The notes under the pieces are model-generated. The model saw only the letters and a list, made by a program, of their open reading frames with translations, made no database searches and was not told the DNA's origin. Below are positions 3,782 to 4,009 of a stretch of DNA of 7,246 bases, one piece after another. Positions within the stretch are counted from its first letter, which is position 1. Each line of letters starts with the position of its first letter. Source of the DNA: Escherichia coli (GTDB lineage Bacteria > Pseudomonadota > Gammaproteobacteria > Enterobacterales > Enterobacteriaceae); assembly GCF_003334765.1 (NCBI RefSeq), contig NZ_QOWT01000061.1. One strand, given 5' to 3'. The translations under genes were made by a program, and so were the position numbers.

Positions 3782-4009
3782 TGCAACCTCATAAATGTGA
3801 TGTGTGAAGTATGATGATATTTTGACACGGTAACCTGAGGTGTCAATATGTGTTCATATTTATGAAGTATGAAATATGAAGTGTGTCATGTGATGTAATA
3901 AATAATACTTGTGTTTTGTGATTTCATAACTATGATAGTGCTCAAATTGAGTATTACCTTGCAACCAGAAACAATGATTTACTCAGATTGAGTATTTAAG
4001 GGGCTATAG
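3782..4009. promoter_or_regulatory. Shared centromere/promoter region between divergent parA and parM (parC1-like)
   Basis: 228-bp AT-rich divergent intergenic region. TGTGAT and ATGAAGT repeats at 3789-3900. TGTGATTTCATAA at 3917-3929. A 16-bp direct repeat CTCARATTGAGTATTW at 3941-3956 and 3982-3997 lies just upstream of the parM RBS (AAGGGG, 3998-4003). Confidence 0.6.

Follow-up and report, generated by a model that had tools for sequence, protein, structure and literature searches.

The window, i.e., the complete stretch of 7,246 bp of Escherichia coli DNA that was analyzed (contig NZ_QOWT01000061.1), contains two partition operons in divergent orientation, parAB on the minus strand and parMR on the plus strand, separated by an intergenic region of 228 bp (Table 1). 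In the annotations of matching plasmids, parA is listed as a par2-type ParA and parB as a CopG-family regulator. With NCBIfam, neither ParR nor ParB had a match, and that of ParM was below the threshold. ParR is identical at 129 of 130 positions, over its full length, to the crystallized protein in PDB entry 2JD3, which was deposited as "StbB protein" and which a passage in PMC3074162 identifies as ParR of plasmid pB171.

A 2.2-kb core of the locus is present at 91-100% identity in ~1000 plasmids from Escherichia, Salmonella, Klebsiella, and Shigella. The retrieved plasmid variants belong to the types IncFIA, IncFIB, or IncFIC, and none of them carries an annotation in the intergenic region. 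The flanking ORFs in the window (146-801, 1335-1920, 1921-2730, 5410-6171, and 6604-7243) resemble, by recognition alone, typical maintenance cargo of IncF plasmids. Presumably, they comprise a VapBC-like toxin-antitoxin pair, CcdA/CcdB, and a tyrosine recombinase (resolvase D-like), together with what we take to be a 5'-truncated Y-family polymerase gene and fragments of an IS3-family transposase. A perfect 18-bp palindrome, ATTCTGATATATCAGAAT, at 5372-5389 spans the stop codon of parR (TGA, 5376-5378); a terminator stem and a recombination junction are possible interpretations.

Table 1. Genes and sequence elements of the par locus, with positions in the window.
Feature	Position	Strand	Basis or remarks
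parB, par2 small centromere-binding protein, 91 aa	2868-3143	-	ORF
parA, par2 Walker-type ATPase, divergent from parM	3137-3781	-	NCBIfam ParA_partition, E = 7e-34, below the curated cut-off
T[AG]TGA[AT] hexamer arrays, par2 ParB-type repeats, other half of parC1	3796-3936		Motif count
Candidate promoter P2 for parAB	TTGACA 3846-3841, CAAAAT 3824-3819	-	16-nt spacer
Candidate parMR promoter P1(iii)	TTGACA 3822-3827, (TG)CAATAT 3844-3849	+	16-nt spacer
Candidate parMR promoter P1(i)	3909-3936	+	Putative; TTGTGT, 16-nt spacer, TATGAT
ParR site 1 (presumably the published R1)	3939-3953		Palindrome TGCTCAAATTGAGTA, core CTCA-AAT-TGAG at 3941-3951
Exact 10-mer ATTGAGTATT, copy 1	3946-3955	+	Probably the published "10-bp direct repeat"
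Alternative candidate parMR promoter P1(ii)	3947-3975	+	TTGAGT (inside site 1), 17-nt spacer, AACAAT, between the sites
ParR site 2 (presumably the published R2)	3980-3994		Perfect-armed palindrome TACTCAGATTGAGTA, 3 nt short of the Shine-Dalgarno sequence
Exact 10-mer ATTGAGTATT, copy 2	3987-3996	+	31 bp past the end of copy 1
parM Shine-Dalgarno sequence AAGGGG	3998-4003	+	Purine-rich element at the equivalent place in most relatives
parM, actin-like segregation ATPase, 323 aa	4010-4981	+	Pfam StbA_N PF06406 (1e-64), ParM C-terminal PF21523 (6e-44)
Candidate third ParR site ACTCATATTGAGTAT	4211-4225		Inside parM, codons Thr-His-Ile-Glu-Tyr; zero mismatches
parR, ribbon-helix-helix centromere-binding adaptor, 130 aa	4986-5378	+	Pfam Plasmid_stab_B PF10784, 1e-29

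Repeats Upstream of parM

Two 16-bp segments directly upstream of parM, CTCAAATTGAGTATTA (3941-3956) and CTCAGATTGAGTATTT (3982-3997), are identical at 14 positions, the mismatches being at positions 5 and 16, and their start-to-start distance is 41 bp; a repeat search yielded the same pair. Extended leftward by 2 nt, they become TGCTCAAATTGAGTATT, starting at 3939, and TACTCAGATTGAGTATT, starting at 3980, with identity at 15 of 17 positions. The downstream unit stops at 3996/3997 and is followed by the AAGGGG sequence and the ATG of parM at 4010. The sequence-only reading had reported two such repeats with 14 matches out of 16, situated 41 bp apart and ending at the Shine-Dalgarno sequence, and all these particulars were recovered when the sequence was read again. 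It had also regarded the elements as direct repeats. A repeat in two copies is indeed present, but an inverted-repeat search revealed that each unit is itself a palindrome rather than a simple direct repeat, with the conserved form (T)ACTCA-N3-TGAGT(A) of 13-15 bp; the 3' TATT of the 16-mer is variable among relatives. Being palindromic, the unit suits a ribbon-helix-helix dimer. Operators of such proteins are two-fold symmetric or consist of tandem sub-sites, and here the arms TACTCA and TGAGTA surround a 3-nt center.

Only two exact direct repeats of 10 bp are found in the intergenic region, ATTGAGTATT (3946/3987) and TGAAGTATGA (3805/3863). The ATTGAGTATT pair is the sole one adjoining parM and is contained within both 16-bp units.

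The region is AT-rich and rich in repeats, with many short two-copy families, and in such a setting the pair could have arisen by chance or be left over from a local duplication, without a function. However, a pair of 15-mers with at most one mismatch was obtained in only 12 out of 2000 dinucleotide-preserving shuffles of 3782-4009. Moreover, the motif occupies the equivalent position in loci where the intergenic DNA is unalignable and ParR is only 27-58% identical. The probability that the pair lacks a function is, therefore, considered negligible. A degenerate pattern of the repeat has five matches in the whole window, with 0.43 expected.

Distribution of the Motif among ParM/ParR Relatives

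The locus was compared with five plasmid loci, in which ParR is 34-56% identical, and with 80 genomic loci containing ParM homologues that are 49-99% identical. The genome scan was seeded with an alignment of ParM, since the alignment of ParR was too divergent as a seed. As a consequence, parM genes lacking parR were likewise recovered and could be used as negative controls. A search with tblastn downstream of parM detected a ParR homologue in 31 of the 85 loci; the other 54 gave no such match. After removal of near-duplicates and inclusion of the window, 26 non-redundant loci with ParR remained, covering 27-100% identity in this protein.

In all 26 loci, the 260 nt preceding parM contain two to five copies of ACTCA-N3-TGAGT with at most two mismatches. 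When a single mismatch at most is allowed, the density of the motif is 7.5 per kb in these 260 nt and 0.13 per kb in the remainder of the same loci, and there were no matches upstream of 55 ParM homologues without a detectable ParR homologue. The sequence-only reading had named the absence of the repeats from homologous loci as an observation that would contradict its proposal; in fact, no locus with a ParR homologue lacks them in front of parM. In 23 loci, the parM-proximal copy immediately precedes the ribosome-binding site and begins at -28 to -34 relative to the ATG; in the three remaining loci, it begins at -22, -24, and -45. The consensus over 79 sites is tACTCAwwtTGAGTa, with nearly invariant CTCA and TGAG cores, together with which a segment of the N-terminal β-strand of ParR, (R/K)(K/R)K-x-T-x-YLH, is conserved. 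The outer flanking positions (0 and 12) covary symmetrically only in part. The distances between neighboring sites across the loci (22-23, 34, 40-41, 52-54, and 61-63 bp) do not fit any single helical period.

Nine variants of the pB171 clade have the same site 1 and differ in site 2 at a single base, 3993, where three of them have A instead of T; other substitutions, as well as 7-bp indels, are located in the spacer and the ParB arrays. The motif is also retained in loci with different neighbors or without parAB (L004 and L005). Hence, it belongs to ParR and not to ParB.

In the Enterobacter- or Hafnia-type loci L001 (at 2881-2894), L008, and L011, a ParR-type site, TACTCAAATTGAGG, is located directly after the stop codon of parR, so that ParR sites flank the operon there; such a site after the parR stop codon was not found in the window. 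Most of the loci L026-L085 contain ParM homologues of 50-56% identity from Aeromonas, Vibrio, Photobacterium, Enterobacter, Citrobacter, and Kluyvera, with no detectable ParR homologue downstream and no ParR motif upstream. Several of the contigs concerned are hundreds of kb to Mb long.

Candidate Promoters and ParB-Type Repeats in the Intergenic Region

Three candidate promoters for parMR were considered (Table 1). The -10 element of P1(i) ends 3 nt before site 1, and its predicted transcription start lies inside that site. Conservation of this promoter extends over the pB171 clade to the Enterobacter-type locus L001, and in L002, L003, L007, L010, and L012 the distal site is immediately preceded by a TATGAT or TATAAT -10 element. 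The position of P1(ii) parallels that of a -10 element directly 5' of the proximal site in distant relatives such as L004, L015, L018, L019, and L024; its case is weakened because its -10 element reads AACAGT in most variants of the clade. For both P1(i) and P1(ii), the predicted transcription start is covered by a ParR site. A scan for consensus promoters found only the minus-strand promoter TTGACA-16-CAAAAT, and the plus-strand candidates stem from separate scoring. With low confidence, P1(i) is favored as the parMR promoter. The two strands carry overlapping, back-to-back promoter-like elements at 3819-3849, within an inverted repeat, TTGACAC...GTGTCAA. Since each -35 element overlaps the -10 element of the other, binding of RNA polymerase for the two par operons would be mutually exclusive at this position.

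The other repeats in the region are hexamers of the form T[AG]TGA[AT]. The window contains 23 matches, with 5.2 expected, and 17 of them are clustered at 2729-2848 and 3796-3928. These clusters are found in exactly two places, in the interval between parA and parM and downstream of parB, often in a 7-bp register, and one 7-bp unit has been gained or lost between plasmid variants. This is the layout expected for the ParB sites of par2 in parC1 and parC2. The 10-bp repeat TGAAGTATGA is made up of hexamers of the kind that also occupies the region 3' of parB and is, thus, a repeat of the par2 ParB type. IHF is implicated in par2. An IHF site was considered and rejected, since the motif, by inspection, does not fit WATCAANNNNTTR.

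The hexamers extend to 3936, where they adjoin site 1, and the intergenic region is common to both operons; in addition, ParB reportedly represses the parMR promoter as well. Hence, the palindromes might be read as sites of ParB of the divergent par2 system instead of ParR. However, ParB sites should recur downstream of parB, as the hexamers do (2729-2848) and ACTCA-N3-TGAGT does not. Furthermore, the motif follows ParR into the loci without this parAB and is missing from those in which no ParR homologue was detected. That ParB, instead of ParR, binds the two repeats is, therefore, considered very improbable.

The palindromes could also act as RNA in the leader of parM, either as hairpins or through pairing of copy 1 with copy 2, and control translation or mRNA stability. 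Indeed, site 2 abuts the Shine-Dalgarno sequence, and repeat 1 is paired with repeat 2 in the predicted fold of 3937-4030 (-18.3 kcal/mol). However, this fold is no better than that of shuffled sequences (z = -1.04, with an equally good fold in 34 of 200 shuffles). Over the 79 sites, it is the arm sequence (CTCA/TGAG) that is conserved instead of varying with compensation, and changes in a single arm, such as in ACGCA...TGAGT, are uncompensated. The number of copies varies from two to five and their spacing from 22 to 82 bp, which suits iterated protein-binding sites and not one RNA structure. Finally, the best promoter in several relatives is located downstream of the distal copies, which would, therefore, not be transcribed. 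A role in RNA is, thus, regarded as highly unlikely.

A Candidate ParR Site within parM

A further copy of the palindrome, ACTCATATTGAGTAT, lies at +201 of parM, with its center 230 bp downstream of that of site 2. This copy is unchanged in every variant of the pB171 clade and in L001, L002, L007-L012, and L014. Conservation at synonymous sites was analyzed in 11 non-redundant parM genes encoding proteins with at least 67% identity. In the window of five codons for THIEY, synonymous-codon conservation is 0.86, vs. 0.43 overall, which is the highest in parM (rank 1 of 120). A run of 17 nt (4211-4227) is invariant in nine of the 11 genes, the next longest invariant run being 5 nt. One of the two exceptions, L003, reads ACGCACATTGAGT, and the ACGCA half-site is also found in the upstream sites of L002-L004. 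In parM genes without parR, similar residues (T-H-V/I-E/D) are encoded at this position by other codons. These sequence comparisons suggest selection at the nucleotide level for a candidate third ParR site, and the presence of a third copy inside parM may be a new observation.

Even with ParR binding the two upstream repeats, the functional centromere could be larger than these and include 4211-4225, and the two repeats would then constitute an incomplete parC. The exact match in parM, the top-ranking synonymous conservation, the invariant run of 17 nt, and the different codons used in ParR-less homologues argue for this possibility. On the other hand, the THIEY amino-acid motif is itself conserved, so that part of the nucleotide similarity is forced by coding, and the conservation is confined to the subclade with at least 67% identity in ParM. 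Moreover, the published work on pB171, as related in a passage of PMC9426499, has two sites only. A larger centromere is, therefore, possible but somewhat doubtful.

Equally tentative is the proposal that the third palindrome is held in place through synonymous codons and joins the ParR scaffold or takes part in autoregulation. More generally, the "direct repeats" of the family would then be palindromic operators, of which the number (two to five) and the placement, including positions inside parM and after the parR stop codon, would be evolving.

Probable Correspondence to the ParR Sites of pB171

For pB171, a passage of PMC9426499 that cites Ringgaard et al. (2007) reports that two repeats of 10 bp upstream of parM are bound by ParR. 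According to the same passage, its binding to parC is direct and cooperative and provides centromere activity as well as repression of the promoter. The ATTGAGTATT pair almost certainly represents these published repeats, R1 and R2, as judged from the citing sentence and the sequence. It lies inside the two 16-bp units and adjoins parM, whereas the other exact 10-bp repeat in the intergenic region, TGAAGTATGA, which has to be borne in mind when the match is considered, is built of hexamers of the ParB type and is located far from parM.

The two repeats are, then, very probably the ParR-binding sites R1 and R2 of parC1, the type II (ParMRC) half of the double partition locus of pB171. In the sequence-only reading, they had been put forward as candidate operators of ParR, and this proposal is supported by the near-identity of ParR to the pB171 protein, by the 10-bp repeats in the literature, and by the co-occurrence of the motif with ParR. 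Several features of parC1 are found: the repeats are located directly 5' of an operon that encodes the actin-like ATPase ParM and the small adaptor ParR, this ParR is identical or closely orthologous to that of pB171, and two 10-bp repeats are present. In addition, the intergenic region is shared with a divergent parAB operon of type Ib, hexamer arrays are situated in this region and downstream of parB, and the sites co-occur with ParR in homologous loci. Thus, the element is almost certainly the published ParR operator and centromere of pB171 parC1 rather than a new one.

ParR of pB171 has been described as a tight (RHH)2 dimer that forms a helical scaffold with the DNA-binding faces outward (passages in PMC9426499 and PMC3074162). 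One ribbon-helix-helix dimer of ParR would be expected to read each palindrome via its N-terminal β-ribbon. Through cooperation between the dimers on the two sites, which are 41 bp apart, a higher-order scaffold of ParR would be nucleated on the DNA. The resulting complex would function as the centromere by capturing the ends of growing ParM filaments, which would push sister plasmids apart. It would, at the same time, act as a repressor of the parMR promoter; the best guess for the promoter that is occluded is the one at 3909-3936.

Implications

As the cis element has already been published, its recognition in the window adds annotation and no new biology. Nevertheless, the locus is carried by ~1000 sequenced IncF-type resistance and virulence plasmids, in which the ParR region is unannotated. 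The refinements over the known element are the palindromic nature of the unit, a consensus for the whole family, the natural negative control provided by ParM homologues without ParR, and the candidate intragenic third site. The palindromic consensus is a simple marker of ParR centromeres throughout the family and could serve to predict incompatibility at the level of partition among plasmids with a common motif, such as those of the pB171 and pINV types. If the intragenic site is genuine, the minimal centromere of a model ParMRC system would have to be redefined, and the site would be an example of a protein-binding site that is maintained by selection on synonymous codons.

Comparison with Other Partition Systems

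In parC of plasmid R1, the prototype of the ParMRC systems, ten 11-bp direct repeats are arranged in two blocks of five that flank the parMR promoter. Like in the window, iterated ParR sites 5' of parM serve as centromere and operator, and the adaptor is a ribbon-helix-helix protein that cooperates with an actin-like motor. However, the window contains two copies at a spacing of 41 bp instead of ten contiguous 11-bp iterons, and these are palindromic and unrelated in sequence. Two blocks of five contiguous repeats are not found there; thus, the elements are similar in kind but differ in architecture.

In parC of the Staphylococcus aureus plasmid pSK41, ParR binds contiguous tandem repeats of 20 bp (Schumacher et al. 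2007). The pSK41 system resembles the pB171 type in that ribbon-helix-helix dimers of ParR on repeated sites form a superhelical segrosome. Its ParR, however, is much shorter, whereas ParR of the pB171 type has an extra C-terminal helical dimerisation domain (PMC3074162) and binds sites that are separated.

A closer relative is the StbA/StbB system of the Shigella plasmids pINV/pCP301 (L005), in which ParM and ParR are 49 and 34% identical, respectively, to the proteins encoded in the window. A motif of the ACTCAAAATGAGT type is present there in four to six copies upstream of parM. In contrast to the window, the copies are more numerous and more degenerate, the proximal one is nearer to the start codon, and there is no adjacent parAB. 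Cross-binding of pB171 ParR has been reported (Hyland 2014, as cited in a passage of PMC9426499), and the motif that pB171 and pINV/pCP301 have in common is consistent with this report.

The closest match is parC1 of pB171 (Ringgaard 2007; Moller-Jensen 2007, PDB 2JD3), which resembles the window in ParR, in gene order, and in the possession of two exact 10-bp repeats, as well as in an intergenic region of roughly 230 bp that is shared between divergent parAB and parMR operons. There is no substantive difference between the two, and the window contains the equivalent element in a sister plasmid. What is added to the description of pB171 is a palindromic unit that is conserved in the family and, possibly, a third copy of it inside parM.
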